64,000 nt of DNA. Origin: Candidatus Krumholzibacteriota bacterium (lineage in GTDB: Bacteria; Krumholzibacteriota; Krumholzibacteriia; JAJRXK01). Location of the stretch: NCBI GenBank assembly GCA_963727455.1, contig CAVSGG010000003.1:32001-96000 (forward strand), read 5' to 3'. Shown here one piece after another: positions 3,709 through 25,510 of this stretch (its first letter is position 1; each line of letters begins with the position of its first letter). A program made the translations under genes and the position numbers. Below the pieces are notes generated by a model, which was given only the letters and a program-made list of their open reading frames with translations, did not search any database and was not told where the DNA came from.

Positions 3709-3759
3709 GAGCCAAAAACCTGCTGTCTTTCCGCATCCGGTTCCGCCCGGAGCGAAGCA

Positions 3760-3791: not shown

Positions 3792-3870
3792 AAGGCGGGC
3801 GGGGGGAAAGTGCCAGCGGGAAATCCCGCTTAATCACTTTAAAAAACAATGACTTAGGGAACTAATTCCC

Positions 3871-4458
3871 TCAGGATTTCCCCTGCAGGTAGTCGATCAC
3901 CATCTGGTAGGCTGGCTGACCGTCGGCCAGCAGTCGCCCCTGGGCATCGTAGACGCGAAAATGGGGCACGCTGTGCAGCTTGAACTGGCGTGCCACCGGG
4001 GATCCCCAGTCGATTCCGGTGACCCCTGGCCGGTTGATGTCGACCTTGATCACCGTGAGGTCGTCCCGCTGTTCATCCAGACGGCGCAAATGGGGAGAAA
4101 TCTGCCGGCAGGGCCCGCAATACTGGCTATAGAAGTCGATGATGTTGATCTGGCCCTTGACCAGATGCTTGGCAAGTTCGATGGGCGCCCCATGGGCGAG
4201 CACGATTTCCGGTTCGTCCGCGTTCGGAGGAGGCGGCACGGTCTCCGCTTGCGGAACCGCTTCGGCCGCGGCACTGGGGACCTCGGCACTCGGGGCGCCG
4301 TTCTCCGGCACGCCGCTGTTCTGGGCACTGGCATTCTGGGAACTGCCGCTTTGGGCCGAAGAATCGCTTCGTCCGCAGCCACTTGTCGCGAGAAGGGCCA
4401 GCAACGAGACCAGAGTCAGCGCCGGAGTCGGAGATGGAAACCACCGGAAGGAACGCAT
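3871..4458 (-). CDS. Thioredoxin-like lipoprotein
   Basis: Lipobox-like LATSGC, Pro/Ala linker, IIDFYSQYCGPC active site, cis-Pro SVPHF. Confidence 0.8.
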   Translation of the reverse strand: MRSFRWFPSPTPALTLVSLLALLATSGCGRSDSSAQSGSSQNASAQNSGVPENGAPSAEVPSAAAEAVPQAETVPPPPNADEPEIVLAHGAPIELAKHLVKGQINIIDFYSQYCGPCRQISPHLRRLDEQRDDLTVIKVDINRPGVTGIDWGSPVARQFKLHSVPHFRVYDAQGRLLADGQPAYQMVIDYLQGKS

Positions 4459-4734
4459 GGAACACCTTTCGTGGTGAAAGCCCCTGGATTGCCAGCTAAA
4501 GTAAGCAAGTCCCCCCGCCGAGCCAAATTTCCCAGGGCGGCGCAGAGAGCTTGCCCTGAAGCTCCGCGATTGGATCGCGGCTTGCGAGAGTTCGGCGTGG
4601 CCTCTATCGTCGCGCCGAGCCCTCGATTTCCTCCCCCAAGCGGCGGCTCGCTGCCAAAACCCCCTCCCGGGCAGCCACCCGGGCGAATTCTCCAGCCGGC
4701 GCCCGCGCCGGCGCCGATGTCCTGAGGCGGATTC

Positions 4735-8912: not shown

Positions 8913-11015
8913 GTGTCCACCGTGATTTCAGATCTCTCGAAGGTCCGCAACATCGGGATCTCCGCGCACATCGACTCGGGGAAAACCACCCTCACCGAGA
9001 GAATCCTTTTTTATACCCAACGCATCCACGCCATCCACGAGGTACGGGGCAAGGACGGCGTCGGCGCAACCATGGACTCCATGGAACTCGAGCGCGAGCG
9101 CGGGATCACCATCGCCTCCGCCGCCACCTACTGCACCTGGAAGAACCACCAGATCAACATCATCGACACTCCGGGCCACGTGGATTTCACCATCGAGGTG
9201 GAACGCGCCCTGCGAGTGCTCGACGGGGCCGTCCTGGTGCTATGCTCGGTGGCCGGCGTGCAGAGCCAATCGATCACCGTCGACCGGCAGATGCGCCGCT
9301 ACAACGTTCCGCGTCTGGCCTTCATCAACAAGTGCGACCGCTCTGGCGCCAACCCCATGCGGGTGACCGAGCAGCTGCGCGAGAAGCTCAAGCACAACGC
9401 GGTGATGATGCAGATTCCCATCGGCCTGGAAGCGCAGCACGAGGGCGTGGTCGACCTGGTGAAGATGAAGGCCATCTACTTCGACGGCGAAAGCGGCGAA
9501 ACTCTGCGCGAGGAAGAAGTTCCCGCCGGACTCTTGCCCGAGGCGCAGGCGCGAAGGGAGCAGATGCTGGACGCGGCTTCCATGTTCTCCGACGAACTGA
9601 TGGAGGCGATGCTGGAGGACACGGTCACCGAGGAACTCATCCACGAAGCGGTGCGCCGCGCCACGATTGCGCGCGAGCTCACCCCGGTGTTCATGGGCAG
9701 CGCTTACAAGAACCGCGGGGTGCAGCTCCTCTTGGATGCGGTCACTCGCTATTTGCCCGATCCCACCGAAGTCCAGAACGAGGCGGTACGCATCGAGAAG
9801 GGCGAGGAAGTCACCTTCCCGGTCGAGGTCTCGCCGGACAAACCCCTGCTCTCTTTGGCCTTCAAGCTGGAAGTGAGTCCCTACGGACAGCTCACCTACC
9901 TGCGCGTCTATCAGGGAAAGCTGCGCAAGGGCGACACCATCGTGAACGCGCGCAGCGGAAATCGGGTCAAGGTGGGTCGTCTGGTGCGCATGCACGCCGA
10001 CCAGATGGAGGACATCGAGGCGACCGGGGCCGGCGACATCGTGGCCCTCTTCGGAGTGGACTGCGCCAGCGGCGACACTTTCACCGACGGCAGCTTCGAG
10101 GCTTCCATGAGCTCGATGCACGTGCCCGAGCCGGTGATCAAGCTGGCCATCACTCCCAAGGACAACAACGCCCAACAAAATCTGGCCAAGGCCCTGGCCC
10201 GTTTCACCAAGGAAGATCCCACCTTCCGCGCCGGCACCGACGAGGAGACGGGCGACACCATCATCGCGGGCATGGGCGAGCTGCATCTGGAAGTTTACGT
10301 CGAACGCATGAAGCGCGAGTTTCGGGCCGAGGTCGAAACCGGCGCGCCCCAGGTCGCCTTCCGCGAAACGATCACCCAGCCGGTGGACTTCGACTACGTG
10401 CACAAGAAGCAGACCGGGGGCAGCGGCCAATACGGTCGCGTGGTGGGAACCCTGGGACCGCAGGGTGAGGAGAGCGAGTTCCTCTTCGAGAACCACGTGG
10501 TGGGCGGACGCATTCCCTCCGAGTACATCAGCGCGGTGGAGAAGGGCTTCCGGGCTTCCTTGGACCGCGGCGAGTACATCGGGTACCCGGTGGTGGGCAT
10601 CAAGGTCGATCTCAAGGACGGCGCCTACCACGCGGTCGACAGTAGCGACACCGCCTTCCAGGCCGCGGCCAAGGGGGCGTTCCGCGAAAACTATCTCAAG
10701 GGCAAGCCGGTCGCCTTGGAGCCCATCATGCTGGTCTCGGTCGAGGGACCGTCGGAGTTCCAGGGCGAGATCCTGGCCACGGTGATGCAGCGCCGCGGCA
10801 TGATCGTGGGCACCACCGAGGACGCGGGCTTCGTGCGCATCGATGCCGAGGTCCCCTTGAGCGAGATGTTTGGCTATGCCACGATTCTGCGCAGCGGCAC
10901 GCAGGGCAAGGCCGAGTTCAGCATGGAGTTCAAACGTTACGGCAAGGCGCCGCAGGAAGTGGCCGAGGAACTCAGGGCCAAGTGGCTCGAGAAGCGCGCC
11001 GCCGGGAAGAGCTAG
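8913..11015 (+). CDS. fusA: Elongation factor G (spd/mtEFG1-like type)
   Basis: [39 protein letters not shown]; RBS AGGAGG. Confidence 0.97.
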
Positions 11016-11047: not shown

Positions 11048-11767
11048 ATGATCTACGGCAAGGATCTCAAGAACCGGAGCCCCCTGAGGGTCTTCGAGCG
11101 CTCCATCCATGGTGGCTTGGGCAAGGGGAACATCGGTCTGGTCATGAGCCGCGCCGGCGTGGGCAAGACCGCCTTCTTGGTGGACGTGGGTTTGGACGTC
11201 TGCATGGGAGGGGAGAAGGTCCTCCACGTCGACACCGAGCACACGGCGGAACGGGTGCGCGAGTACTACGAGGAAGTCTTCCGTGATCTCGCGCAGGGAG
11301 CGGGACTCGAAGACCGCACCGAGGTGCACCTTCAGGTCGAGCGCCGCCGCATGATTCACAGCTTCCTTCGCGGGTCCTTCAGCCTGGAGCGTTTGCAGCA
11401 GGCCATGATCTACATGAAGGAACACATCGACTTCGTCCCCAGCTGCATCATCCTGGACGGCTATCCCGCCTGGGAGCAGTTGGGCCCCGAAGAGCTTCGC
11501 GAGAGCCTCACCGCCGTGAAGAAGATGGCGGTGGAGAGCGAGACCGAAATTTGGATCTCCGCGCAGGGTCACCGCGAGGACGAACGCGACGAGATGGGAG
11601 TGCCGCTGCGCCTGCAGCCCTACCTGGAGGTCCTCTCGGTGGTGGTGCGCCTGGTCTCCAAGGGCAACGAGGTGCGGTTGCAGCTGGTCAAGGACCACGA
11701 GAATCCCGACCTGGCCGACCTGCACATCGAACTGGATCCCAAGACCCTGCTGCTCAAGTGGCGTTAG
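11048..11767 (+). CDS. RecA/KaiC-like P-loop ATPase of unknown function
   Basis: GGLGKGNIGLVMSRAGVGKT Walker A, IILDG Walker B-like; 32 bp after fusA. Confidence 0.75.
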   Translation: MIYGKDLKNRSPLRVFERSIHGGLGKGNIGLVMSRAGVGKTAFLVDVGLDVCMGGEKVLHVDTEHTAERVREYYEEVFRDLAQGAGLEDRTEVHLQVERRRMIHSFLRGSFSLERLQQAMIYMKEHIDFVPSCIILDGYPAWEQLGPEELRESLTAVKKMAVESETEIWISAQGHREDERDEMGVPLRLQPYLEVLSVVVRLVSKGNEVRLQLVKDHENPDLADLHIELDPKTLLLKWR

Positions 11768-12614
11768 GCACTTTGGGCGCAGGAATCTCCTCCACCGTGG
11801 CCAGAGAACCGTAGGGCACCGCAGCGCCGCTGCGAGTGGCCGGGAACTCGGTCATGCGCACCGCGCGCGTGATCTCGCTCTCGGCCGCCGCGAAGGAGCC
11901 GCTCTCGCCCGGCGAGAGTCGCAAGGCCCCGCTGCTGCGCGGGATCTCGGCCACCAGACGGCGCAATTCGATCGCGACATCCGTGAACACGCGCAGAGCA
12001 TCCCCGCTGAGAGGACGGCGCGTGTGGATCGCGATCCGCTGATCCTCCACCTGCAAATGAATGGATAGCGGTTCCACGACCTCGCGCGCGTCCGCCATCA
12101 ACAAATAGAGAGCCTGCGCCATCAACACCGAGCGCTGGTCCACGCTGTCCGTCTGGCATTCCCATTCCATGCGCAGAGCGAAACCGGGCGGCGGCGCGTG
12201 ACGTAGCTTGCGCTGCAGCGCGCGCAGGCGGCCTGTACCCTGGTTCACCGGCGAGATCTGCAGTCCGCGCAGAGTGAGCAGTTTGTTTTCGAAGAGAAAG
12301 GCCTGCTGCGAGCTAGGTCCCAGTCGCCGGCGGCAGAGGTAGTAGCTGCCCAGGCCGTCGCTCCCGCGCAGGACACAGGAGATTCCTCCGTGGCGCCCCT
12401 TGCCGCCCAGAGCCGTGGCCGCGTCCACCAGGGAGCGGGGCAGTCCTTGCTCCTGGGGGTTCAGCCCGCGGCTCTCGGCCAGGATGGCCAGATCCAATTG
12501 TTCCTGTTCGCGCTGACGGCGGCGGTGCACGCTGACGACGCTGCGCAAAAGAAGCACGAGCGCCAGGGTCAAGGCACTGAGTCCCAGCACGGGCAGGGTG
12601 TGGACGATGTTCAC
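11754..12614 (-). CDS. Hypothetical protein with N-terminal TM anchor
   Basis: Fills the gap between genes; hydrophobic LPVLGLSALTLALVLLL followed by basic residues; GTG start inferred. Confidence 0.55.
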   Translation of the reverse strand: MNIVHTLPVLGLSALTLALVLLLRSVVSVHRRRQREQEQLDLAILAESRGLNPQEQGLPRSLVDAATALGGKGRHGGISCVLRGSDGLGSYYLCRRRLGPSSQQAFLFENKLLTLRGLQISPVNQGTGRLRALQRKLRHAPPPGFALRMEWECQTDSVDQRSVLMAQALYLLMADAREVVEPLSIHLQVEDQRIAIHTRRPLSGDALRVFTDVAIELRRLVAEIPRSSGALRLSPGESGSFAAAESEITRAVRMTEFPATRSGAAVPYGSLATVEEIPAPKVPNAT

Positions 12615-12936: not shown

Positions 12937-13187
12937 ACGAATGTCGTGGAGCGTGAAGTATATAAAACGGGGCCAGGGACGCAAGCCACCGCGAGCGCCG
13001 CGGGCGCGTCTGCCTCACTCCGCGCGGGACCGCACAAAGGGCGGAAACCGGCGGCGCGCGCCGATTGGCGCCCTCTGGACAGGGCCCCTCGCGGGGATTA
13101 GTCTGTGGCCTCCATGCGGCGGCAGGAGAAAAAGATAAGGTCCGCGCCGCCTTTGTCCTGAGTCCGTGTTCCGAGAAACCACCCATC

Positions 13188-14900
13188 ATGACTCCCCCCG
13201 ACGACCCTAATTCCAAGCCCGAGAACTCCCTGGATGCCAAGGAGAGCCGGGATTTCATCCGCGACATCATTCGCGAGGACCTCGCCGAGGGAAAGCACGG
13301 GGGCCGGGTGCACACCCGCTTTCCTCCCGAACCCAACGGATACCTGCACATCGGGCACGCAAAGTCCGTCTGCCTGAATTTCGGGGTCGCCCGCGAATTC
13401 GGCGGACTGTGCAATCTCCGCTTCGACGACACCAATCCGGCCAAGGAAGATCCCGAGTACGTCGCGTCCATCCAGAACGACGTGCGCTGGTTGGGCTTCG
13501 ACTGGGAGGACCGGCTCTACTACGCTTCCAGCTACTTCGAGAAGATGTACGAGTACGCACTGCAGCTGGTGAAAAAGGGCAAGGCCTACGTCGACTCGCA
13601 AAGTGAAGAGGAGATCCGCCGCAACCGCGGTACCGTCAAGAGTCCGGGCACGCCCAGTCCCTATCGCGAGCGCAGCGTGGAGGAGAACCTGGATCTCTTC
13701 ACCCGCATGAAAGACGGCGAGTTCGAGGACGGAACCCACGTGCTTCGGGCCAAGATCGACATGGGCGCCTCCAACATGAAGATGCGCGACCCCTTGATCT
13801 ATCGTATCCGGCACGCGAGCCATCACCAGACCGGCGATACCTGGTGCATCTATCCTTTTTACGACTTTGCGCACTGTCTGGAAGACAGCATCGAGGGCAT
13901 CACCCACTCGCTGTGCACCCTGGAGTTCGAGATCAACCGCGAACTCTACGACTGGTTTCTCGACGAACTCGAAGTGGAGTGTCACCCGCAGCAGATCGAA
14001 TTCGCCCGCCTCAATCTGAATTACACGGTGATGAGTAAGCGCAAGCTGCTGCAACTGGTGCAGGAGAAGGTGGTGGCGGGTTGGGACGATCCGCGCATGC
14101 CCACCCTGGCCGGACTGCGCCGGCGCGGCTACACCCCGGCTGCCATCCGCACCTTCGCCGAACGTATCGGGGTGGCCAAGCGCGACAGTGTGGTGGACAT
14201 CGCGCTCCTGGAGCACACCCTGCGCGAGGACCTCAACGCCAACGCCTCGCGGGTGATGGCAGTCCTGGATCCGCTCAAGGTGGTCATCGAAAACTATCCC
14301 GAGGGTGAGGTCGAATGGATGGAAGCGATCAACAACCCCGAGGACGAAGGCGCAGGCACGCGCAAGGTCCCCTTCTCCCGCGAGATCTACATCGAGCGCA
14401 GCGATTTCCTGGAAGATCCCCCGCGGAAGTTCTTCCGTCTCTCGCCGGGCTGCGAGGTGCGCCTCAAGCACGCCTACTTCATCACTTGCACCGATCTCGT
14501 GAAGAACGACGCGGGCGAGATCGTCGAGCTACGCTGCGAGTACGATCCCCAAAGCCGCGGCGGCGAAGCGCCCGACGGGCGGCGGGTCAAGGGAACCCTG
14601 CACTGGGTGAGTGCGGCACAGTCCCTGAAGGCCGAGGTGAGGCTGTACGACAAGCTCTTCACGGTGGAGAACCCGGGCGAGGTGCGCGAGCTGCACTCGG
14701 TGTTGAACCCGGACTCGCTCGAAGTGTTGAAGGACTGTCGCGTGGAACCCTCGCTCAAAGAAGGCGCGGCGGGACAGGGCTACCAGTTCCTGCGCCACGG
14801 CTACTTCTGCCTCGATCCCGACACGCGGCCCGACGCGCTGGTGTTCAATCGCACGGTGGGACTGCGCGACACTTGGGCCAAGATTCAGAAGAAGAACTGA
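13188..14900 (+). CDS. glnS: Glutamine--tRNA ligase
   Basis: [60 protein letters not shown]. Confidence 0.97.
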
Positions 14901-14929: not shown

Positions 14930-15565
14930 TCAGTGGGCGCCCACCAGGCGCAGGGGCGCCGGGGCCGAGCGCGTCAGTTGGGTGTCGAGTTCGCCGAGGG
15001 CGGTGACCCGCCAGAAGCCGGCGCCGCGCCCCATTTCCGCCAATTCTGAAGCGTCCACCACCGCAGTGGTGTCCTGGCTCACCAGCTCGAAGACCTCGTG
15101 GGAGTTCGCGTCGAAGACCTCGATGCGGTAACGCTGTGCCTCGGGGAAACTGCTCCAGCGAAAGCGTAGCTGCGGGGTGGCCACGCTACCGACCGGCGCG
15201 AGCGCGCTCAGTTGGCCCTCCGCGCCGCGATATACCGGCGCCGGTTCCAGCGGGGTGCGCAGCGAAGGATGCGGGAGCAGCACCACCGCCAAAATTGCGG
15301 CGGCTGCCAGCGGGATGAGCAGACGCTTGGGCAGAGGCCAGCGCTTCTTGGCGAAGCTCCGCCGCGCGCGCAGCACCGCGTCCAGCCCTTCGGCTTCATA
15401 GAGCATGCGCGCCAGTTCGGGAGAGTTTCGTAACTCCGTTTCGAAGTCCCGCTGCTCGCTCGCGCTCATCCTGCCCTCGCGATAGGCGAGAACTCGCGCC
15501 CCCTGCTCTTCGCTGAGTCCTTCCGCTTCTTCGAAGCGCTCGGGCGGCCGATTGCTTTCCTTCAC
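14930..15565 (-). CDS. Putative membrane anti-sigma factor with extracytoplasmic Ig-like domain
   Basis: GTG start overlaps the ECF stop; ASD-like LAYREGRMSASEQRDFETEL; TM LLIPLAAAAILAVVLL; C-terminal beta-rich domain (FRW...YRIEVFD...FWRVTA). Confidence 0.72.
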   Translation of the reverse strand: MKESNRPPERFEEAEGLSEEQGARVLAYREGRMSASEQRDFETELRNSPELARMLYEAEGLDAVLRARRSFAKKRWPLPKRLLIPLAAAAILAVVLLPHPSLRTPLEPAPVYRGAEGQLSALAPVGSVATPQLRFRWSSFPEAQRYRIEVFDANSHEVFELVSQDTTAVVDASELAEMGRGAGFWRVTALGELDTQLTRSAPAPLRLVGAH

Positions 15566-16101
15566 ACCCGTACCCCTCTCTCCAAGAGAAGACGGCGAAA
15601 CTTCTGGCGGCAACGGTAGAGGCGGCGGTAGAGCACCGTCTCGCTCAGGCCGGCGGCCTCCGCCAAGCGCCGCGGCTTTTCCCCATCGGCGAGTCGACTC
15701 AAGAAACCCCAGCACTGGCTGTCGCCCGCGCGCAACTCCTGCAGCGCCGCGCTCAAATGCTGCAGCAACTCCTTCTGTTCGAGCGCTTCCGCCGGCGTGC
15801 CCTCCGCGGCCAAACTCGTCGGCTCGACCAGTTCGCTCTCTTGTCTCGCGCGCGCATGCCTCTGGTAGAAATTGCCGATGGTGTTGCGCAGAACTTGAAA
15901 GCACCAGGCCATGGGCGGGAGCCCTTCGACGAGCCGCGCGCTCTCGATCTGCTGCGCGCGGCAGAGGACGGTGGTCATGGCCTCCTGCACCACGTCCTCC
16001 ACTTCGGCGGCCGGTACGCGCCGCGCCGCGATTTCCACGAAACGCTCCCGGAGCCTCTGGCTCCAGTCTTCAGCGGCGGAGCTGATCGGTGCGCGGTCCA
16101 T
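15562..16101 (-). CDS. ECF RNA polymerase sigma factor
   Basis: Region 2 VEDVVQEAM...WCFQVLRNTIGNFY; region 4 LAEAAGLSETVLYRRLYRCRQKFR. Confidence 0.88.
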   Translation of the reverse strand: MDRAPISSAAEDWSQRLRERFVEIAARRVPAAEVEDVVQEAMTTVLCRAQQIESARLVEGLPPMAWCFQVLRNTIGNFYQRHARARQESELVEPTSLAAEGTPAEALEQKELLQHLSAALQELRAGDSQCWGFLSRLADGEKPRRLAEAAGLSETVLYRRLYRCRQKFRRLLLERGVRV

Positions 16102-16136
16102 CCTGAATGTTTGGCTCGGGAAAAAATCTCTCGCGG
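16102..16136 (-). promoter_or_regulatory. Candidate ECF-dependent promoter, copy 1
   Basis: CCGCGAGAGATTTTTTCCCGAGCCAAACATTCAGG abutting the ECF ATG; 25/35 identical to 21137-21171. Confidence 0.5.
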
Positions 16137-16269
16137 CTTGCCGCCCGATGCTAGCAGAAGTGCCAAGAACGCAGCTAGCGGACAATTGCGTTTCTTCTTC
16201 GCCCCCGCGCGCAGCTACGTGCTACACTGGGCCCGGTCTCCGCCTTCCCCGCCCCTTGCGAAGGTGCCC

Positions 16270-18738
16270 ATGGATTGCCGCCCGGTCCCGTTTGCCAGCC
16301 CACGCGAGGCAGCTCCGCGTGCGCGTCGTTCCTGGCTCGCCAGCTTCGTGCTCGTGTGCGGTCTGCTCGCGACCTGGTCTCCGCTCTGGGCCCAGGATGC
16401 GAGCGAGGAGGTACGCGAAGCCCTCGCAGAGTATCGCTCCGATCTGGATGCAAAGAGCGCCAGTGCGCTGGCGAAGCGCCTGGAGTCTCTCGAGCCGCAA
16501 CTTGCCGAAAGTGGACAGGACAGCCTGCGCTCCGAGGTCCTGGAGACCGCGGGGCTGCTCTCCTTTCGCCACGGCGACCTGCACCATGCGCGGGCGCTGT
16601 GGGCCGAAGGACTGACGGCCGCCCGCGCCGCCAACTCGACTTCACAGATCATGGCCCTGCTCAACATGAACGCGGTGGGCGTGAGCCAGGCTGGCGACTA
16701 CGCGCGGGGAATCGAACTCTTCCAGGAACTCACCGCCCTACGCAGGGAGAGCGGCGACCGGCGCGGCGAGGGAATCGCGTGGAACAACATCGCCAACTGT
16801 TTCATGAAGTTGAATCGCCTGCCCGAGGCTTCGGCGGCCGTCGATTCGGCGAAGGTCTGTTTCGAGGATGTGCAATTCGATCGCGGGCTGGGCAGCGTCT
16901 ACATCCTGCGCGGTCTGGTTCGGCTCGAGATGCAGCGCAGTGAAGAGGCCCTTGCCTCCTTCGAGGCTGCAGCCGCGATGGCCTACCAACTCGGCCAGAA
17001 GGACCTCATTGCCACCGCCCTGGCCAATCGCGGCCGCCTCAAAATGCTGCGCGGCGAGCCGGTCGAACTCGCGCTGGCCGACGTCGACTCCGCTCTCGCC
17101 CTGTGGAAGGAAATGGACAACCGCCAGCAGTTGCTCATGGTGCACATGATGCGCGGGGAAGTGCTGGTGGAAACCGGCCATGGCCAAGAGGCCCTGGCGG
17201 ACCTGCGGAAAGTGCTCACCCAGCGCGAAGCGGCCGGCGAGGAGTTCGATGCGCTGCCGGTGCGCAATCTCATCGGGGCCGCCTACCTCGAATCGGATCG
17301 CCTCGAGGATGCGCAGTCCTATCTCGAGCAGACCCTGACCATCCTGGAAAGCCTGCGCGCCCAGGCCCTCGACGAAGAGACCCGCATGGGTCTCTACCGC
17401 CGCGGTGGACTGGCCCATCGCGACCTGGCCGATTGCCTCTTGCGCCAGGGCAAGGTGGAAGAGGCCTGGGCGGTGGCCGAACGCGGCCGGGCTTGGCTCT
17501 TGCGCGAACAGCTCGCACCGCCAAATACCGAGGCCGCGATCCTCGAACTTGCCAGTCTGCAGGAGAGGCTGCGCGCCTCGGGGGCGGTCTACGTGCACTT
17601 GGCCGAGAGTTTGGCCGGCGCCAGCTTCGCCTTCATCGTGAGCAGCGAGGGCATCAAGGTGGTGCGGCTCGCGGTTCCCCACTCCCTGATGACCGATCTG
17701 GAGATCGCCGTCTACCACATGGCCAACGGATCGCCCGACGAGCTGTGCGATCCACCACTGACGCGTCTGGGCGATGCCCTGGTGGGACCGCTGGTCGAGG
17801 ATCTGCCCGAGGATGGGCGTGGCGTTCTATTTTCGTTGCCGGGAAGCTTGAGCGATCTTCCCCTCGATGCTCTACGCTACGAGCGAGGGGGGAGCGCGCA
17901 GGTATTCGGCGAACGATACGCGACCGCGCTGGTCCCCTCGGCCACCACCTGGAACGCATTGGAGAAGCGCCCCGCGCCCAGCAAGGGCGTCTACGCCTTC
18001 GCCGACCCCAAGGCCGATCTCGCAAAGGGAGGCTCTCTCGCCATCACCCGCTTCCGCGACGTCCTGGGCTTGCCCCTGCCCCAGGCGCGCGAGGAGGCGC
18101 GCGCGATCACCCGGGGGGGCGGACACTCGCTCATGGGTGAGGAGGCTTCCAAAGCACAGTTTCTGCAGCTCATCGATCGTGATCTTGGGGTTCTCCACTT
18201 CGCCACGCACGCGGTGGTCGATCCGGTTTATCCCGAGCAGTCGGCCTTGCTATTGGCCGGTGGGGAGGACGACCGTCTGACCGCAGGCGAGATCGAGGCG
18301 CATCCTTTCCACGCCGATCTCGTCACCCTGAGTGGCTGCCGCACCGGCGGCGGGCTCACCTATGTGGGCGAGGGAACCCTGGGCCTGATGCGCTCCTTCT
18401 TCGTGGCCGGCGCGCGCAGCGTGGTCATGTCGCGTTGGGACGTGGAGGACAGAGCGGCGCGCCGTTTCATGGAGGAATTCTACGCCGCGCTCGAGTCGGG
18501 GGAGGACCGCGCCACCGCGATGCGCAACGCACGCATGCGCCTGCGCGAGGAAGGCTTCCCGCACCGCGACCGCTCCGCCTTCGTTTTGGCCGGGGTGGCG
18601 ACCGAGCCGGTGCTCTCGCTCCTGATGAACAAAGAGCCGGACCACGATCGGGCCCGGCTCTTCGTCATCGCCGCGCTGATCCTACTTTCGGGCTCCCTCC
18701 TCTGGCAGATCAGACGACGGCGCTCGAACGCCGCGTGA
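16270..18738 (+). CDS. TPR + CHAT (caspase-like) protease with signal peptide and C-terminal TM anchor
   Basis: Signal peptide ending LWA-QD; TPR repeats (GDRRGEGIAWNNIA etc.); catalytic HFATH (18196-18210) and LSGC (18328-18339); C-terminal LFVIAALILLSGSLLW-QIRRRR. Confidence 0.9.
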   Translation: MDCRPVPFASPREAAPRARRSWLASFVLVCGLLATWSPLWAQDASEEVREALAEYRSDLDAKSASALAKRLESLEPQLAESGQDSLRSEVLETAGLLSFRHGDLHHARALWAEGLTAARAANSTSQIMALLNMNAVGVSQAGDYARGIELFQELTALRRESGDRRGEGIAWNNIANCFMKLNRLPEASAAVDSAKVCFEDVQFDRGLGSVYILRGLVRLEMQRSEEALASFEAAAAMAYQLGQKDLIATALANRGRLKMLRGEPVELALADVDSALALWKEMDNRQQLLMVHMMRGEVLVETGHGQEALADLRKVLTQREAAGEEFDALPVRNLIGAAYLESDRLEDAQSYLEQTLTILESLRAQALDEETRMGLYRRGGLAHRDLADCLLRQGKVEEAWAVAERGRAWLLREQLAPPNTEAAILELASLQERLRASGAVYVHLAESLAGASFAFIVSSEGIKVVRLAVPHSLMTDLEIAVYHMANGSPDELCDPPLTRLGDALVGPLVEDLPEDGRGVLFSLPGSLSDLPLDALRYERGGSAQVFGERYATALVPSATTWNALEKRPAPSKGVYAFADPKADLAKGGSLAITRFRDVLGLPLPQAREEARAITRGGGHSLMGEEASKAQFLQLIDRDLGVLHFATHAVVDPVYPEQSALLLAGGEDDRLTAGEIEAHPFHADLVTLSGCRTGGGLTYVGEGTLGLMRSFFVAGARSVVMSRWDVEDRAARRFMEEFYAALESGEDRATAMRNARMRLREEGFPHRDRSAFVLAGVATEPVLSLLMNKEPDHDRARLFVIAALILLSGSLLWQIRRRRSNAA

Positions 18739-18757
18739 GCTTCCGCGCTCCTCTCGT

Positions 18758-20515
18758 TTAGCGCTTTACGCTCGCCGCGACGACGCTCGCATCAACTTCC
18801 CCGGCCGTCGCCTGGGCGGCCACCTGCAGACGCAAGGACTCGAGGACAGCGCCCTGGCGCGCCAGTTCCTCTTTTTGGGCCTGGATCTGCTTCTGTTGCT
18901 GCTGCAGAGAGGCGATGAGCACGGGAATGAGCTGGTCGTACTCCACGCTCAAACTCTTCTGCGCATCGTCGCCCTCGTGGACGATTTCGGGCACGACTTC
19001 GCGGAGTTCCTGCGCAATCAGTCCCAACTGCCGTCCCCGCTGCGACAGCTTCTTCCAGCGGAAGCTCACCGGGCGCAGCTTCATCAGTTCGTCGAGCCCG
19101 TAATCCAGGTCCGCGATGTCCTTCTTGAGACGTCGGTCCGAGGGAGTGTCCACCGCCATCGCGTAGACCACGCTCCAGCGTTTGCTGGAGCTTCCCAGAG
19201 TCCACAAGCTACCCGCCGAGGGCAGCACCGAGCCGCCGAAGACCGAAGTGCGGGTGTCGTAGTCGATCTGGATGGCGGGCAGACTGTTGCTGCCGGCGCG
19301 GATGACGAAGTCGTCCCCGTCGGTGACCGAGTTGCGCAGGTACCACTTGACCCCGACACCGTTGTGAAAGCGGATGTCGACGTCGTTACCGCTCCCGTTC
19401 AGATTGATGATGTCCTTCGCGCCAAACACTCCGCCGACGGTAAACCCGGCCGCGGTTCCGTAGATTCCGTCGAGTACCCACTGCAATCCGGTGGAGTAGA
19501 TTCCTCCGTGAGCGAGCCCCACGCCCGACTCACCCAGATCGTACCAGCGAGTGAACTCCAACTTCGAAGGACTCAGGCGCACGCCCAGATCTTCATAGGG
19601 CGCGGCGCCAGTGCCCGTATCGCGTCCCAGGAGAATCTCGTTGGGCTGGCTGGAGGAGTTCAGGTGCAAAAGCGCGTCGGGCGTGGTGGTGCCGATGCCC
19701 ACCTGACCGTTGGGTTCGATCGCCAGGCGCTGCGAGCCGCCATTCTCAATGGTGAAGACGCTGGAAGGACTCTGCTCGAAGACCAGTCCCCAAGATCCTC
19801 CCGAGCGCAAGCGCATCGAGACGGGCACTTCCATGGGGGTGTGGAGATCCAGCTTGTGCTGGGGACTGGTCTCTCCCACTCCCACGTTGCCGCTCACCCC
19901 TAAGGTGAGGTCGTCGCCGTTGATGTTCCAGTCACCGTCGGCGCCACCTGCGCCGGTGGCGTTGATGGTGAGGTCGTTGCCGTTGGGCACCACGCTGACG
20001 TTGGTTCCACCCACCAGATTCACCGGACCCGTGAGACCATTGAGGGTCTTCACCGCGGCCTGCTCGTCGACGGCCAGAGCGTAGGGCACCGCACTGAGTT
20101 CACTGCGCGGGGCGAGTTCGCTGCCGCCATCCACCGTGAGCGCCAGCCACAAACTCTGGTCGAAGTCGACCGTTGCGAGCGAAGTCGAAGAGCCCAGAGT
20201 GGCTTCGGCGAGGCCGTCCACCAGGTCGAGCACTTGGGTCTCTTCCCACAACATGGTCCCCGCAGAGGGATCGTCGTAGAGACGAAATACGAGGGTGTGA
20301 CTTCCCTGCAGCGCGGTGCCGCTGCCGTCCTCGACGATTCCCTGCCAGCCGATGGTCTGAGGAACCGCGGCGTGGGCGGGGGAGGCCAAGTTGGCCAGGG
20401 GGGTGAGTGCGCTGAGAGGCGCGAGGAGTCCGAGGAATGTGAGCATCCCGAGGAAAGTGAACACTCCGAGGGACGGCCCCAAAGAGAGCTGTCTGAAAAA
20501 TGCAAACCGGCGCAT
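18758..20515 (-). CDS. Secreted tail-fibre-like protein with C-terminal peptidase S74 intramolecular chaperone
   Basis: Signal peptide; GNVGVG/GQVGIGTTTP repeats; PSDRRLKKDI...LRPVSFRWK...GLIAQEL...VEYDQLIPVLI followed by a coiled coil. Confidence 0.85.
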   Translation of the reverse strand: MRRFAFFRQLSLGPSLGVFTFLGMLTFLGLLAPLSALTPLANLASPAHAAVPQTIGWQGIVEDGSGTALQGSHTLVFRLYDDPSAGTMLWEETQVLDLVDGLAEATLGSSTSLATVDFDQSLWLALTVDGGSELAPRSELSAVPYALAVDEQAAVKTLNGLTGPVNLVGGTNVSVVPNGNDLTINATGAGGADGDWNINGDDLTLGVSGNVGVGETSPQHKLDLHTPMEVPVSMRLRSGGSWGLVFEQSPSSVFTIENGGSQRLAIEPNGQVGIGTTTPDALLHLNSSSQPNEILLGRDTGTGAAPYEDLGVRLSPSKLEFTRWYDLGESGVGLAHGGIYSTGLQWVLDGIYGTAAGFTVGGVFGAKDIINLNGSGNDVDIRFHNGVGVKWYLRNSVTDGDDFVIRAGSNSLPAIQIDYDTRTSVFGGSVLPSAGSLWTLGSSSKRWSVVYAMAVDTPSDRRLKKDIADLDYGLDELMKLRPVSFRWKKLSQRGRQLGLIAQELREVVPEIVHEGDDAQKSLSVEYDQLIPVLIASLQQQQKQIQAQKEELARQGAVLESLRLQVAAQATAGEVDASVVAASVKR

Positions 20516-20547
20516 GGGCTTCTCCTTTCGCAAGACATAGCAGCGCT

Positions 20548-21084
20548 TCAGCGCGCCAGGACCAGGCGCCGGACTTGCTCGAAACCGGGAGCCTTGAGTT
20601 GGTAGAAGTAGACTCCGCTCGCCAGATTGTCGGCGGCGAAGACGAGACGGTGTTCTCCCGCACTCTGGTTTTGATCCACCAGAGTGGCGACGCGGCGTCC
20701 GCGGACGTCATAGATGCTGAGCAAGACGTGTCCGTCCTCGACAAGCGCGTAGCGGATGGTGGTGCGGGGGTTGAAGGGATTGGGGTAGTTCTGGTCCAGG
20801 CGAGTGCTCTTGGGCAGCGTGGGCGTCGGATCTAGGACCGCGGTGGCCGTACCCGAGTTCTTCTTTGCCCAGAAGCCGTGGCGCACGATGCGCTCTGGCC
20901 TGCTGGACCGGCCGGTGATCGCTTGGCCCACGCTGTGGCGAAGCTCTCGGTCCAGGCGAACGGCCTTGCGGCCGCCGGCACCGAGGAACTCGCGCTTGAG
21001 TTCGTGCTGCGCCGGCGCGACGGCCCCCAGGGCGATCGCGAAGACTGCTGTCAGGCTGAGCAGGACCAGGAAGCGTCGGAACAT
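20548..21084 (-). CDS. Small secreted protein with T9SS type-A / FlgD-like C-terminal domain
   Basis: RBS GAGGAGG, signal peptide, LDQNYPNPFNPRTTIRY...IYDVRGRRVATL...LASGVYFYQL. Confidence 0.85.
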   Translation of the reverse strand: MFRRFLVLLSLTAVFAIALGAVAPAQHELKREFLGAGGRKAVRLDRELRHSVGQAITGRSSRPERIVRHGFWAKKNSGTATAVLDPTPTLPKSTRLDQNYPNPFNPRTTIRYALVEDGHVLLSIYDVRGRRVATLVDQNQSAGEHRLVFAADNLASGVYFYQLKAPGFEQVRRLVLAR

Positions 21085-21136
21085 CTGCGCTTCCTCCTCG
21101 ATCGGCACCGGGGGGAACTCATCGGGGCCGCTTGCC

Positions 21137-21171
21137 CCTGATCATTTGGCGAGAACGAAAATCTCCCGCGG
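21137..21171 (-). promoter_or_regulatory. Candidate ECF-dependent promoter, copy 2
   Basis: CCGCGGGAGATTTTCGTTCTCGCCAAATGATCAGG, 52 bp upstream of the ATG at 21084. Confidence 0.5.
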
Positions 21172-21218: not shown

Positions 21219-21304
21219 GTGTACCCGGGTACACTCGGTGAGCCGTGCAGCGGTGTAGCCGGGTACACTCGATCAGGCGCGCAGCCGTATACCCGGGTAC
21301 ACTC
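21219..21304. repeat. Three palindromic repeats GTGTACCCGGGTACAC(TC) at exact 34-bp period
   Basis: Copies start at 21219 (perfect), 21253 and 21287 (one mismatch each). Confidence 0.9.
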
Positions 21305-21379
21305 TCGACGGGCCCCACGAAGGCAGCTCGCTGGAGAATCGAAACCCGAGCCTTGGCAAGCGCCCGACCGAGACCCAAT

Positions 21380-21399
21380 TTTTATAGCCGGCTATAAAA
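21380..21399. repeat. Perfect 20-bp palindrome TTTTATAGCCGGCTATAAAA
   Basis: Read directly; second copy at 22105-22124. Confidence 0.9.
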
Positions 21400-21502: not shown

Positions 21503-21955
21503 GTGCATCGTCTCCTCTCGTGGCTCCTCATCGCAGCTTTCACTCTCAGCGCCTGCGCCTCGGGCGCACCGCCCCCCGTGGAGACCGATACCGAGACTTC
21601 CGAAGCCGATCGTTTGCCGGAGGTCCTCTCCTCCTGCAAGCCCGGTGATCGCATCGAAGTCTGGGCCAAGAGCGGCGAGTGCTTCGAGGCAACATTCGAA
21701 GCTTGCGACTCGACGACACTTAGCGTGGCCGACAAGAGCTATGAGCACGTTTACCAGCGTGACGACCACGGGTATCGCAATCAGACTCGATATCAGCTCG
21801 CAGAGCTTGCAAGGGTGCGAGCCGCTCCGTTTTTGAGCAAATCTGCCGCTAAGAAGCTCACGCTTGGTGGAATCGCGATCAGCGTCGCAGCTGTCGCGGG
21901 AATGACGGTTTTGGGAACTTTGGTCTGGTTAATGGTAGGCCTGAATTATCATTGA
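21503..21955 (+). CDS. Hypothetical lipoprotein with C-terminal TM helix, paralog 1
   Basis: RBS GGAG, GTG start, lipobox LSAC, hydrophobic C-terminus; paralog of 22228-22677. Confidence 0.75.
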   Translation: MHRLLSWLLIAAFTLSACASGAPPPVETDTETSEADRLPEVLSSCKPGDRIEVWAKSGECFEATFEACDSTTLSVADKSYEHVYQRDDHGYRNQTRYQLAELARVRAAPFLSKSAAKKLTLGGIAISVAAVAGMTVLGTLVWLMVGLNYH

Positions 21956-21978: not shown

Positions 21979-22062
21979 GTTACGCCGGGTAGATTGGGAA
22001 AGACTGGGACTTGTCTACCCGGGTACACTGTGAGTGAAGGATAGCTGGATACCCGCAGAGAG
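21979..22062. repeat. Second, more degenerate set of the 34-bp-period palindromes
   Basis: GTCTACCCGGGTACAC at 22013; weak copies at 21979 and 22047. Confidence 0.6.
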
Positions 22063-22104: not shown

Positions 22105-22124
22105 GTTTATAGCCGGCGATAAAA
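22105..22124. repeat. Second copy of the 20-bp palindrome (GTTTATAGCCGGCGATAAAA)
   Basis: 18/20 match; starts 123 bp before its start codon, same as copy 1. Confidence 0.85.
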
Positions 22125-22227
22125 ATCTTCAGGCTGAGCTAATAAGGGGCAGAAAATGTCCTCGCAGCCAGGCGCGGTTCCCTCAAGCCGCAGACAATCC
22201 TCACTTTGATCTCTGATGGAGGTCAGC

Positions 22228-22677
22228 ATGCGGCGTCTCCTCTCATGGGTGCTCCTTGGAACCCTCACCCTCAGCGCCTGCGCCTCGGGCGCACCGCCCC
22301 CCGTGGAGACCGATACCGAAACTTCCGAAGCCGATCGTTTGCCGGAGGTCCTCTCCTCCTGCAAGCCCGGTGATCGCATCGAAGTCTGGGCCAAGAGCGG
22401 CGAGTGCTTCGAGGCCACCTTCGTGTCCTACGAAGCGTCGACTCTCACCGTCGACAACAAGACCTACAGACGGACCTACCAGCGGGACAACCGGCGCCAT
22501 CGCGCTCAGATGGAGTATACGATCGAGGAGATCGCCCGCCTTCGCGTCAATCCACCTCCCGAAGAGACTTACTCTCCGCAACTCTCGCCAATTGGCGTCG
22601 CGGCAGTTGCCATCATGACGGTAGCCGTTGTTGGCACGATCTTGTTTGCCCTAGCTTTCCGTGATGTCCGTTTCTGA
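22228..22677 (+). CDS. Hypothetical lipoprotein with C-terminal TM helix, paralog 2
   Basis: RBS GGAGGT, lipobox LSAC, hydrophobic C-terminus. Confidence 0.78.
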   Translation: MRRLLSWVLLGTLTLSACASGAPPPVETDTETSEADRLPEVLSSCKPGDRIEVWAKSGECFEATFVSYEASTLTVDNKTYRRTYQRDNRRHRAQMEYTIEEIARLRVNPPPEETYSPQLSPIGVAAVAIMTVAVVGTILFALAFRDVRF

Positions 22678-22822: not shown

Positions 22823-22896
22823 TGGTTGCCCGGGGAGGATTCGAACCCCCATCGACTGAGCCAGAGTCAGTTGTCCTGCCGTTGGACGACCGGGCA
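22823..22896 (-). tRNA. tRNA-Gln (CTG)
   Basis: TGCCCGG...ACTGA-CTCTGGC-TCAGT...GGTTCGAATCC...CCGGGCAACCA; U1-A72; 74 nt. Confidence 0.96.
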
Positions 22897-22994
22897 ATGA
22901 GCGTCAATAATTAGACAAGAGGGGCCCGCTTGGCAAGCTGCGATGCGTCGCGCCGCGATTCAGGGCCCTCCGCGCAGCGAACGCCGATTCGAAG

Positions 22995-24440
22995 CTAGCT
23001 CTCCTTTGCGCCGAGCAGGCGTTTGACCACCGTCTCCTTGCCCAACACCTCCATGCTGGCGAACAGGCTAGGCCCCACTCTCTGGCCGGTCAGGGCCGCG
23101 CGCGTGGGGTGCACCAGCTCGCCCAGCTTCACGCCGAGTTCCTCGGCATAGCTCCGCAACAACGCCTCCAGCGCGGCAGAGCGAAACTCCTCCAAACCAT
23201 CCACCCGCCGCCCCAGCTCGCGGAGCCGCTCCACCGCCTCCGCGTCCAGACTCTCTTCGGTCTCCGGATCCCGCGGATACTCCTCGCTGAAGTAGCACGC
23301 CAGACGCTCGGCCGCCTCGCCCAAAAAGCTGATGCGCGCGCCCATGATCTTGACGACTTCCTTCAGCTTCGCGCGCGCCGCCTCGTCGTCCTTTCCGACC
23401 AGACCCGCGCGAACCATGCGCGGCCACACCAGCGCCGCGCGCTGCTGATCGTCGAGATTCTTCATGTGCTGCGCGTTGATGTAGCGGCACTTCTCGGGAT
23501 CGAAGACAGCGGCAGTGTTGTTCAGGCGCTTCAAGGAGAAGGCCTTGATGAGCTGGGGCATCTCGAAGACTTCCTGCTCGCCGCCGGGATTCCAGCCCAG
23601 AAGCGCGAGGTAGTTCACCAAAGCCTGCGGCAGGTAACCCTCCTCACGGAATTCCTCCACGCTGGCCGCCCCGTGGCGCTTGCTCAACCTCTGCTTGTCC
23701 GGCCCCAAGATCATCGGCAAGTGTCCAAACTTCGGCAGCTTGAAACCGAAGACGTTGAAGAGGTGAATCTGTCGCGGGGTGTTGCTGATGTGATCGTCGC
23801 CGCGCAGCACGTGGCTGATCTGCATGAGTCCGTCGTCGACCACGCAGGCAAAGTTGTAGGTGGGAAAGCCGTCGCTCTTGACCGCCACCCAGTCGTCCAG
23901 CACCGCGCACTCGAACTCGGTGTCTCCGTGCACGATATCGCTCCACTTGATCGCGCCCTCGTCGGGCATGCGCACGCGAATCACCGAACTGCGGCCGTCC
24001 GCCTCGCGGGCGGCGCGTTCTTCTGGACTGAGATCGCGGCACACACCCTCGTAAATCTTCTGCCGGCCTTCGGCGATGGCCTTCTTGCGCATCGCCTCGA
24101 GCTCCCCGGGCGTGCAGTAACAGCGGTAGGCTAAGCCCTTGTCGAGCATCTGCTGCGCGTAGTCGTCGTAAATTTCGCGTCGTTCGCTCTGCACGTAGGG
24201 GCCGAACTCACCGCCGACCCCCGGGCCTTCGTCATAATCCAATTCCAGCCACTGAAACGCGCGCAGGATCTGTTGATGGCTATCCTCGGTGGAGCGCTCC
24301 TGATCGGTGTCCTCGATGCGCAGAATGAACACACCCTGTTGCCCGCGCGCGTAGAGCCAATTGAAGATGGCGGTACGGGCGCCTCCGACGTGCAGGGTGC
24401 CGGTCGGACTTGGCGCGAAGCGGACGCGGATGTGGTTCAT
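22995..24440 (-). CDS. gltX: Glutamate--tRNA ligase
   Basis: RVRFAPSPTGTLHVGGAR, LRIEDTD, YRCYCT, RLSKRHGA. Confidence 0.97.
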   Translation of the reverse strand: MNHIRVRFAPSPTGTLHVGGARTAIFNWLYARGQQGVFILRIEDTDQERSTEDSHQQILRAFQWLELDYDEGPGVGGEFGPYVQSERREIYDDYAQQMLDKGLAYRCYCTPGELEAMRKKAIAEGRQKIYEGVCRDLSPEERAAREADGRSSVIRVRMPDEGAIKWSDIVHGDTEFECAVLDDWVAVKSDGFPTYNFACVVDDGLMQISHVLRGDDHISNTPRQIHLFNVFGFKLPKFGHLPMILGPDKQRLSKRHGAASVEEFREEGYLPQALVNYLALLGWNPGGEQEVFEMPQLIKAFSLKRLNNTAAVFDPEKCRYINAQHMKNLDDQQRAALVWPRMVRAGLVGKDDEAARAKLKEVVKIMGARISFLGEAAERLACYFSEEYPRDPETEESLDAEAVERLRELGRRVDGLEEFRSAALEALLRSYAEELGVKLGELVHPTRAALTGQRVGPSLFASMEVLGKETVVKRLLGAKES

Positions 24441-25510
24441 CGACCACCGTCCTTCGATTGCGGCGCAGAACCGGACTTCGGTGCGGTATCGGGCTCTTGT
24501 GCGGGCACGGCGGGACTCTCGCTCCTCGGTGCACCCGGATCTCCCAGCTTCTGCGGATCCAAGAGCTCGAGCAGACGGGGGACGCTCACCCCGTACACCC
24601 GAGGCACCGCTTCCTCGAAGAGCACCCCTTGCTGCAGGAGGTCGAGCAGCTGCACGACTCTCGCCCAACCGTAGTCCTGCGCCAGATGCCACGCCATGAG
24701 GAAGGCGTTGTACTGGGCGATGCGACCGTCCTCCTTGCCAGTGAGCGGATAGATGGTGCGTAAGACTTCCCCTGAAGAGAGAAGCACCGAGCGATCTCCC
24801 CGAAACTGAACCATGAAATCTTCCAGCACTCCCCCTTCTTCGGCGAGATAGCTCGCCAAGCCGGCGCGCAACCACTGAGGCAGGTTTCCGTGGCACTTCA
24901 TGTCCAGAAACGATGTTGCCACCCCATTGCGAATGGCGTGCAGGGCCAGGGTGCGGCTCCACAGGACGCCGATGGGCTCGTAGGCGATGAACGGTCCATC
25001 GACCACTTGTGTAACCCAAAAGTCCTTTCCCGTGACCTTCTTGTAGTCCTTCAAGGTCGGGGCGGCGTAGATCTGGATCTTCCCCTTCGGAGTGAAGTGC
25101 AGCGCGTCCTTCATGTCCTGGTGGAACAGGTCGTGCAATTCGAGCCAGCGTCCCGTCATTTCCTCACGAACGTTGTCACTGCGATTGATCGTGAACCAAC
25201 GGCCGGTCATGGTGCTGTCGGTGACCACCAGGTCGGGATGATTCAAGCGCGTCTTGAAGTGGTAGTAGGTATTAGGTCCGTAGGGGACTCCTTCGTCGTC
25301 GTAGAGAATTCCCCACTCGCCCTGAGATTCCGCCGGCCACCAGTAGGGCTGATCGAGATTGTTGGGGTAGCCCTTCTCCGCAATGCGTGGCGCATCGAAA
25401 GTGGGATAGAGCCCCAGCCCGGGACTCGGTGTGCCCGGAGTGCTCGCGCATCCACCCAAAAGAGAAAGAGAAGCGATTGCGAGAACGAGAACGATAGCTT
25501 TCGGCGACAT
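24437..25510 (-). CDS. Hypothetical lipoprotein, degenerate peptidase MA-like fold
   Basis: Lipobox LGGC; LPQWLRAGLASYLA resembles PxWxxEGxAxY but there is no HExxH. Confidence 0.6.
   Translation of the reverse strand: MSPKAIVLVLAIASLSLLGGCASTPGTPSPGLGLYPTFDAPRIAEKGYPNNLDQPYWWPAESQGEWGILYDDEGVPYGPNTYYHFKTRLNHPDLVVTDSTMTGRWFTINRSDNVREEMTGRWLELHDLFHQDMKDALHFTPKGKIQIYAAPTLKDYKKVTGKDFWVTQVVDGPFIAYEPIGVLWSRTLALHAIRNGVATSFLDMKCHGNLPQWLRAGLASYLAEEGGVLEDFMVQFRGDRSVLLSSGEVLRTIYPLTGKEDGRIAQYNAFLMAWHLAQDYGWARVVQLLDLLQQGVLFEEAVPRVYGVSVPRLLELLDPQKLGDPGAPRSESPAVPAQEPDTAPKSGSAPQSKDGGR

Follow-up and report, generated by a model that had tools for sequence, protein, structure and literature searches.

The coupling of a sigma factor of the extracytoplasmic function (ECF) type to a CHAT-family protease has a precedent in DdvA/DdvS of Myxococcus, reportedly the subject of earlier studies in 2018 and 2024 (PMC6061681, PMC11506125). 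A different form of it is found in the locus analyzed here, a five-gene block in a 64,000-nucleotide stretch of DNA (hereafter the window) from an uncultured wetland bacterium of the phylum Krumholzibacteriota. The block encodes an ECF sigma factor, a candidate anti-sigma factor, and a tetratricopeptide repeat (TPR)-CHAT protease predicted to be periplasmic, beside a two-gene operon for a type IX secretion system (T9SS) cargo protein and a fibre. In M. xanthus, DdvA is a transmembrane zinc-binding anti-sigma (ZAS) factor fused to a periplasmic TPR-CHAT region, and has been proposed as its own site-1 protease; the linker of DdvA faces the active site of the partner in the dimer, and truncated DdvA is degraded by RseP (PMC11506125; statements on DdvA here and below follow excerpts of that paper). 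Its authors, writing on what is apparently the only CHAT-linked anti-sigma factor studied so far, hold that CHAT as the site-1 protease can be validated only once the trigger has been identified; in the excerpts, fused anti-sigma-TPR-CHAT forms are reported only from Myxococcota and one Comamonas (PMC11506125). We propose, with a probability of about 0.45, that the Krumholzibacteriota locus works as a cell-envelope switch of three components, in which a protease gates an ECF sigma factor, and that it controls the adjacent fibre operon.

Like DdvS/DdvA, the locus combines an ECF sigma factor and a single-pass anti-sigma candidate with a His/Cys TPR-CHAT protein predicted to lie in the periplasm, and has a flexible juxtamembrane linker as the proposed target of site-1 cleavage, which would be followed by a site-2 protease (RseP in M. 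xanthus). The TPR-CHAT fold is of the separase/craspase type, and the DdvA structures 8rw5 and 8rot_A are its top Foldseek matches. Whereas DdvA is a single polypeptide whose self-cleavage would take place in trans inside a dimer, the window encodes separate proteins of 211 and 822 aa from divergent genes. Unlike DdvA, the protease has its own signal peptide and C-terminal anchor, and the anti-sigma candidate has an ectodomain of its own, resembling fibronectin type III (FN3) domains, and lacks the zinc motif, whereas DdvA carries a ZAS domain. The DdvS regulon is an island of cyclic-oligonucleotide-based antiphage signalling system (CBASS) and clustered regularly interspaced short palindromic repeats (CRISPR) genes (PMC11506125), whereas the output of the window locus appears to be T9SS cargo and a fibre.

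A separate CHAT/TPR gene next to an ECF sigma gene, as in the window, is also conserved in group ECF54 of the Actinobacteria, the CHAT/TPR protein having been suggested to act in regulation there (Huang et al., 2015, cited in the PMC7826278 supplement, from which excerpts are used). As described there, ECF54 is confined to Actinobacteria, has no recognisable anti-sigma factor, occurs in a context of subtilase and carboxypeptidase-regulatory-like genes, and has the promoter GTATCAG / CTCC; by comparison of the described context only, the window differs in having an anti-sigma candidate and no subtilase. In the type III-E craspase system (Cas7-11, Csx29, Csx30, CASP-sigma), a TPR-CHAT protease is likewise tied genetically to an ECF-like sigma factor and to an inhibitor that craspase cleaves; however, craspase is cytoplasmic, RNA-guided, and Cas-bound (PMC10028731), and its fold match to the window protein is the weaker one. 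No Cas7-11/gRAMP or Csx30 gene is present among the large open reading frames (ORFs) at ~8.9-31.3 kb of the window, and no CRISPR or CBASS genes were found in the annotated flanks of the block (~6 kb upstream, ~10 kb downstream), cas genes not having been searched for genome-wide; among the genes of the flanks is a MacB-type efflux system. On the evidence of these flanks the locus appears CRISPR-independent, as supposed in an earlier note on this DNA that was made from the sequence alone. The proposed arrangement of a separate membrane-anchored periplasmic site-1 protease, which cuts the periplasmic part of the anti-sigma factor and is followed by an M50 site-2 protease, is that of E. coli DegS/RseA/RseP/sigma-E, the textbook case of regulated intramembrane proteolysis. 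DegS, however, belongs to the serine proteases and senses through a PDZ domain, whereas the window encodes a candidate cysteine protease of clan CD whose sensor would be the TPR region.

A literature search yielded no description of a split anti-sigma/CHAT system, only papers on DdvA, on craspase, and on ECF classification, the later ECF groups of the classification supplement lying outside its coverage. The earlier note had also held that the known CHAT-sigma systems are all cytoplasmic and Cas-triggered, which DdvA, a transmembrane protein with a periplasmic TPR-CHAT region, contradicts (PMC11506125), and its claim of novelty has been overtaken by DdvA/DdvS and by the CHAT/TPR context catalogued for ECF54 (PMC11506125; PMC7826278 supplement); its interpretation as a whole is partly supported. 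That interpretation is reasonable but not new in concept. We read the locus as a split form of the DdvA type that would act in trans, with an FN3-type anti-sigma candidate, a conserved Arg-Gly/Ser linker site, and an apparent T9SS-cargo/fibre output.

Components of the locus and their predicted topology

The sigma gene (15562-16101, minus strand) encodes a 179-aa protein that belongs to the ECF superfamily by its match to TIGR02937 (53.3 bits against a cut-off of 42.9, residues 10-171); the Pfam family Sigma70_r2 gives only 19.7 bits, under its cut-off of 24, and the top match among PDB sequences is an ECF SigH/SigE chimera (E 2e-5). The next gene (14930-15565, minus strand) encodes a 211-aa single-pass membrane protein, and its GTG start overlaps the TGA stop of the sigma gene in the tetranucleotide GTGA at 15562-15565. 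No match to this protein was found in Pfam or NCBIfam. In an AlphaFold2 (AF2) model, built with 18 relatives (predicted local distance difference test, pLDDT, 81), four N-terminal helices (residues 19-69) precede a transmembrane (TM) helix (80-96), which a disordered linker (97-120) joins to a beta-sandwich resembling FN3 domains (residues 121-207; Foldseek E about 1e-4). The coupling of the sigma gene to a single-TM protein with an outside beta-domain, as originally proposed, is thus borne out by the overlap and by the model.

The 211-aa protein is read as a class I-like anti-sigma candidate because of the overlap of its start with the sigma stop, the N-terminal helix bundle, a zinc motif in relatives, and the occurrence of zf-HC2 anti-sigma factors in comparable triads (L095 and L111, below; L numbers denote the surveyed loci); its N-terminal domain would bind the sigma factor. 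The zinc motif (H-x3-C-x2-C) is located at the N-terminus of three relatives from one genus (L048, L051, L052; alignment read by eye) and is absent from the window protein; one of these relatives has a weak NCBIfam anti-sigma match (E 0.005). A family profile searched against PDB sequences returned only RslA (3hug_B), at a non-significant E of 0.22. A word-based homologue search with the anti-sigma candidate gave only 8 close matches. An exhaustive profile search returned 15,255 matches at E<=1e-3, of which 175 reached E<=1e-30; many of the matches were to giant proteins of tandem FN3-like repeats. In such proteins, of 1100-4900 aa, the FN3-like ectodomain recurs as 8-32 tandem repeats (P0009, P0010, P0017, P0052, and others).

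The TPR-CHAT gene (16270-18738, plus strand) is divergent from the sigma gene across a 168-bp spacer, and convergent with the cargo/fibre operon. The 822-aa product is assigned to the CHAT family by a domain match (PF12770, E 5.5e-53) and a conserved His/Cys dyad: the HFATH and LSGC motifs are in place, and none of the 12 aligned relatives departs from H643, H647, or C690, at only 21-36% identity outside the genus. From the N-terminus, the protein comprises a signal peptide or anchor (~18-41), a TPR superhelix (~42-415), the CHAT domain (~427-776), a TM helix (792-821), and an RRRR tail. In the AF2 model (pLDDT 82.7; predicted template-modelling score, pTM, 0.76), the CHAT domain is ~15 residues from the membrane anchor. 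Every one of the 12 relatives begins with a hydrophobic signal and ends in a TM helix plus Arg/Lys, and the body of the protein is therefore predicted to be periplasmic, on the same side of the membrane as the anti-sigma ectodomain. Thus, the divergent TPR-CHAT with intact dyad, signal peptide, C-terminal TM helix, and RRRR tail that the earlier note described is upheld, as is, at the level of prediction, the placement of the protease on the side of the anti-sigma ectodomain.

The link to DdvA emerged by fold alone: single-sequence and profile searches of the TPR-CHAT protein against PDB sequences returned TPR proteins only, whereas Foldseek ranked the DdvA periplasmic domain first (8rw5 and 8rot_A, query-based TM-scores, TMq, of 0.53 and 0.52), above craspase Csx29 (TMq ~0.34) and separase (~0.3). 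A complex predicted between residues 42-790 of the CHAT protein and residues 97-211 of the anti-sigma candidate, which span the linker and the FN3 domain, scored 0.12 (mark 0.32) and weighs neither way.

Conservation of the triad and a candidate cleavage site

Homologues of the anti-sigma candidate are present in 61 of 208 genomes of Krumholzibacteriota. Conservation of the triad, which the earlier note had suggested surveying, was assessed from both sides. On the anti-sigma side (20 matches covering most of the query, with up to ~8 kb of flank on each side), sigma, anti-sigma, and CHAT genes occur together at 13 loci, which represent four families and three gene orders: divergent (in the genus of the window), CHAT>sigma>anti, and sigma>anti>CHAT. 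Four loci with neither sigma nor CHAT gene (L035, L039, L041, L042) are on short contigs of one family, and another (L045) runs into a contig edge. On the CHAT side (the best 80 loci of 510 relatives in a species-representative collection), the cognate sigma gene adjoins 14 of the 19 closest loci, and a first, family-specific sigma profile placed sigma genes beside 19 of the 80. A broader iterated ECF profile, home-made and checked by Pfam/NCBIfam on only a few loci, identified a sigma-like ORF within the flanks of 48/80 loci, and at a distance of <=1.7 kb from the CHAT gene in 42/80; the latter span Krumholzibacteriota, Acidobacteriota, Bacteroidales, Planctomycetota, and a delta-proteobacterial metagenome-assembled genome (MAG). 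The genome of the window has 17 sigma-like ORFs in 3.46 Mb, and therefore chance adjacency is ~2% there; it would be somewhat above this value in ECF-rich phyla.

The association takes more than one architectural form. Two Acidobacteriota MAGs (L095, L111) have split triads with anti-sigma factors that match zf-HC2 in Pfam. In an MAG of the Vicinamibacterales (Acidobacteriota), a 1163-aa zf-HC2-TPR-CHAT fusion is encoded directly after an ECF sigma gene (L132, 3249-6737, plus strand), which is the DdvA architecture outside the groups named by the DdvA authors (PMC11506125, as excerpted). Two Bacteroidales loci (L123, L128) encode a CHAT protein with a C-terminal anchor adjoining an ECF sigma gene; at both, the CHAT/sigma pair is followed by an ORF of ~730 aa (L123 6375-8558, L128 6326-8530, plus strand) with an N-terminus that by eye is like a C39-peptidase ABC exporter. 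The genome of the window itself has two other CHAT genes, on contigs C17 and C1. At the C17 locus (C17:47395-56007; L001 1395-10007), a 1053-aa exported CHAT protein without a C-terminal anchor is divergent from a 554-aa ORF composed of sigma-like, anti-sigma-like, TM, and TPR regions (TIGR02937 34 bits, under the cut-off). This locus has a FlgD_ig/T9SS-type cargo protein on one side and a weak subtilase-like (S8) match on the other, which recalls the ECF54 context.

The linker of the anti-sigma candidate contains a triplet of the form [LFMVY]-R-[GS], represented in the window protein by Y112-R113-G114, within the disordered region (pLDDT 44-71) between the TM helix and the FN3 domain; the linker is otherwise variable in sequence. 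All 26 non-redundant FN3-type anti-sigma candidates that adjoin a CHAT gene have this hydrophobic-Arg-Gly/Ser triplet, including those from Thermoanaerobaculia, other Acidobacteriota, and delta- and Pseudomonadota-labelled MAGs. It is missing at L035, L039/L041, L042, and L049, where no CHAT gene was seen. Among 109 family representatives of 170-270 aa, taken without regard to gene context, Arg occupies the column in 104 and Gly/Ser the next column in 99, and the flanking columns are variable. We regard the triplet as a candidate site of CHAT cleavage. An arginine at P1 fits the specificity of separase, a CHAT relative, which cuts after Arg (PMC11506125). The correlation of the triplet with CHAT adjacency is suggestive only, because the exceptions are few and three of them belong to one clade.

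The shared motif, the cargo/fibre operon, and the flanking genes

Two copies of a motif, identical at 20 of 27 positions, link the sigma gene to the cargo/fibre operon, in line with the earlier claim of such a motif. Copy 1 (16109-16136, minus strand; GAGAGAT-N12-CAAAC) ends 7 nt 5' of the sigma ATG, and copy 2 (21144-21171, minus strand; GGGAGAT-N12-CAAAT) lies 60 nt upstream of the ATG of the T9SS cargo gene; on the gene strand the consensus is GRGAGAT-N12/13-SAAAY. This pattern has 2 matches against 0.02 expected, a circular figure in that the pattern was written from those two sites. Independent support for the motif comes from its conservation in relatives: both other genomes of the genus retain it ahead of the sigma gene as well as ahead of the cargo gene, and 15 non-redundant genomes have it a short distance upstream of the sigma gene. 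The degenerate motif occurs 30 times in ~1.0 Mb of sequence from the surveyed loci, against ~5 expected (duplicate loci included). Its link to cargo or fibre genes recurs in other families. A second copy precedes a gene for a protein with a T9SS C-terminal domain (CTD) or a fibre-like gene in L033, L034, L040 (from another family), L044/L070, L058, and L061; those of L040, L044/L070, L058, and L061 played no part in defining the pattern.

The end of CAAAC is 7 nt away from the sigma start codon in eight genomes, a distance that would fit a -10 element of a leaderless or near-leaderless mRNA. We infer that the motif is a promoter, and specifically that of this sigma factor; if so, the regulon is small and local. 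At four CHAT>sigma loci, GGGAGAT-N13-CAAAT is located inside the last CHAT codons (L036 ~7396-7421, L037 ~9085-9109, L069 ~4678-4703, L071 ~3071-3096), where it dictates a conserved CHAT tail (...GRS.G..K), and its CAAA continues into the sigma ATG, which overlaps the CHAT stop as ATGA; the 3' end of CHAT is under nucleotide-level constraint at these loci. A separate repeat pair (15999-16033 and 22926-22960, 71% identity) is distinct from the shared motif and was dismissed as chance. A search of sequencing runs found no RNA run listed with the stretch, and eight DNA metagenome runs with part of it.

The operon downstream of copy 2 is, as the earlier note had it, one for a T9SS-CTD protein and an S74 fibre. 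The T9SS cargo gene (20548-21084/21108, minus strand; likely start the ATG at 21084) has its stop 14 nt upstream of the fibre gene start, and encodes a signal peptide, a passenger of ~75 aa, and a T9SS type A C-terminal domain (PF18962, E 7.8e-9; TIGR04183, 38.6 bits); beyond the genus, only the CTD is conserved in the alignment. The assignment as T9SS cargo agrees with the presence of a T9SS in the genome, indicated by a SprA_N match on contig C8 (45 bits against a cut-off of 27). The fibre gene (18758-20533, minus strand) encodes a 591-aa protein with its own signal peptide, a C-terminal S74 intramolecular-chaperone domain (PF13884, E 9.3e-17), and a weak match to Bdello_MAT_N (E 9e-4); a genome search identified it as the only S74 protein of the organism. 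Analogous loci carry other T9SS cargo in place of the fibre. The genome also encodes an M50 protease of the site-2 type (PF02163, 227 bits; C5:5752-7050).

The window, which has a GC content of ~64%, corresponds to contig C3:32001-96000 of an 18-contig, 3.46-Mb genome. The five-gene block lies between glnS, encoding GlnRS (13065-14900), and tRNA-Gln(CTG) (22823-22896) with gltX, encoding GluRS (22995-25019), and is therefore an insert among translation genes; it is syntenic in two further genomes of the same genus. Large ORFs at ~8.9-31.3 kb of the window encode EF-G, a KaiC-like ATPase, GlnRS, GluRS, an MA peptidase, MacB/FtsX, HlyD, and Yip1, and none of those annotated is a phage gene. In the two same-genus genomes, frameshifts or assembly errors are apparent: in L033 the anti-sigma and fibre genes are each in two overlapping frames (7528-8563 and 2958-4731), and in L034 a change of frame (~11728-11843) affects the last 25 CHAT codons, which encode the TM anchor.

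The 16-bp palindrome GTGTACCCGGGTACAC occurs in three tandem copies and a distant fourth (21219-21302 and 22013-22028), immediately upstream of the candidate promoter region that carries motif copy 2. A second palindrome, TTTATAGCCGGCTATAAA (21378-21398 and 22106-22126), precedes each of two paralogous genes of ~150 aa (21503-21955 and 22216-22677, plus strand), which share a 300-nt repeat of 80% identity; their products begin with a signal- or lipoprotein-like segment, end in a TM helix, and are without a match in Pfam. Both kinds of palindrome look like operator sites of some dimeric regulator.

Proposed mechanism and alternative explanations

In the switch that we propose, the cytoplasmic helical domain of the 211-aa protein would hold the sigma factor at rest, and its FN3-like domain would be displayed in the periplasm on a flexible linker of ~24 residues. 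The TPR-CHAT protein would, after export, stay attached to the inner membrane through its C-terminal helix, so that the CHAT domain, rather than the TPR arm, would be positioned beside the membrane and the anti-sigma linker. A signal would be sensed by the TPR arm, the FN3 domain, or both, upon which CHAT would cut the linker at the hydrophobic-Arg-Gly/Ser triplet (R113-G114 in the window protein) as the site-1 cleavage; the M50 protease would then cut within the membrane and free the sigma factor, which would transcribe its own gene and the T9SS-cargo/S74-fibre operon from the shared motif (GGGAGAT-N12/13-CAAAY). For the role of CHAT as the site-1 protease, the present support is indirect and consists in the conserved linker triplet and its co-occurrence with an adjacent CHAT gene.

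A more far-reaching proposal, which we consider possible but doubtful, is that exported TPR-CHAT proteins are dedicated trans-acting site-1 proteases of a widespread, multi-phylum class of ECF switches, cutting the juxtamembrane linker between hydrophobic-Arg and Gly/Ser, and that the switch of Krumholzibacteriota reports on the state of T9SS cargo or of the fibre under its control, as a feedback from secretion or surface contact, in the way that DegS senses unassembled porins.

Several observations weigh against the proposed switch. Mutants of the catalytic dyad of DdvA have no phenotype in the absence of a known signal, and autoproteolysis was not seen (PMC11506125). CHAT is not obligatory, in that two sigma/anti-sigma pairs (L043, L049) have no CHAT gene within ~7.5 kb, and conversely 38 of the 80 CHAT genes are without a sigma-like ORF at a distance of <=1.7 kb; at L063 and L065 there is no sigma gene in the flanks, and the CHAT gene on contig C1 of the same genome has no sigma gene beside it. 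The Arg-Gly triplet is kept without CHAT at L043, and the loci that lack both triplet and CHAT are mostly from one clade (family f8), leaving few independent events behind the correlation. Across the genome, the degenerate motif occurs 18 times against ~17 expected, hence without enrichment, and apart from the two sites no regulon came to light; the motif also has a shorter spacer than textbook ECF promoters, and at L036, L037, L069, and L071, where CAAA overlaps the sigma ATG, the simple -10 reading fails.

The alternative that survives best, although we judge it unlikely, is that CHAT is an output or accessory effector that processes T9SS cargo, the fibre, or envelope proteins, and that the sigma factor is released by another site-1 protease or conformationally. 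The frequent position of CHAT as third gene of the sigma operon, where it would be sigma-induced like a regulon member, fits this alternative, as do the pairs at L043 and L049. However, in the genus of the window the CHAT gene is divergent and has no motif; the CHAT linkage also holds where the neighbouring cargo genes differ or are missing, and the linker triplet tracks CHAT adjacency.

Rather less probable again is a role for CHAT as a sensor or co-anti-sigma that does not cut the anti-sigma factor, shielding the FN3 domain or the linker as RseB shields RseA, and leaving on signal or cutting only itself; equally, the Arg-Gly site could be a docking site or the target of another protease. The periplasmic domain of DdvA sterically blocks RseP, its catalytic activity being unproven (PMC11506125), and a conserved triplet denotes constraint, not cleavage. 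Nevertheless, the His/Cys dyad is invariant at ~20-30% identity, an argument that catalysis has been kept for a substrate of some kind.

S74 chaperone domains (PF13884) typically belong to phage tail fibres and spikes, and a phage-derived S74 fibre would be at home in a phage-sensing defence switch in which CHAT detects a periplasmic phage protein. Such a switch has a precedent in DdvA/DdvS (PMC11506125). For the window locus we consider it improbable: two other genomes of the genus share the block in synteny, and housekeeping genes flank it, with no phage, CRISPR, or CBASS genes among the large ORFs in the range given above; the fibre has its own signal peptide, and the analogous loci have T9SS cargo of other kinds. 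Chance adjacency of a CHAT gene and an ordinary ECF pair, both being common in bacterial genomes, is contradicted by the survey (13/20 and 42/80 against ~2% expected, with adjacency kept through three gene orders) and can be given almost no weight.

Compared with the single polypeptide of DdvA, the split system parts enzyme and substrate into two small soluble pieces, namely the periplasmic CHAT protein and the FN3 domain with its linker. Together with the conserved candidate site, this makes extracytoplasmic caspase-like gating of an ECF sigma factor a simple question of cleavage and reporter output. The survey suggests that CHAT-ECF coupling is much broader than the distribution reported for the fused forms, and in Krumholzibacteriota such coupling would connect signalling at the envelope with T9SS cargo and with an adhesive fibre of the Bdellovibrio-like kind.

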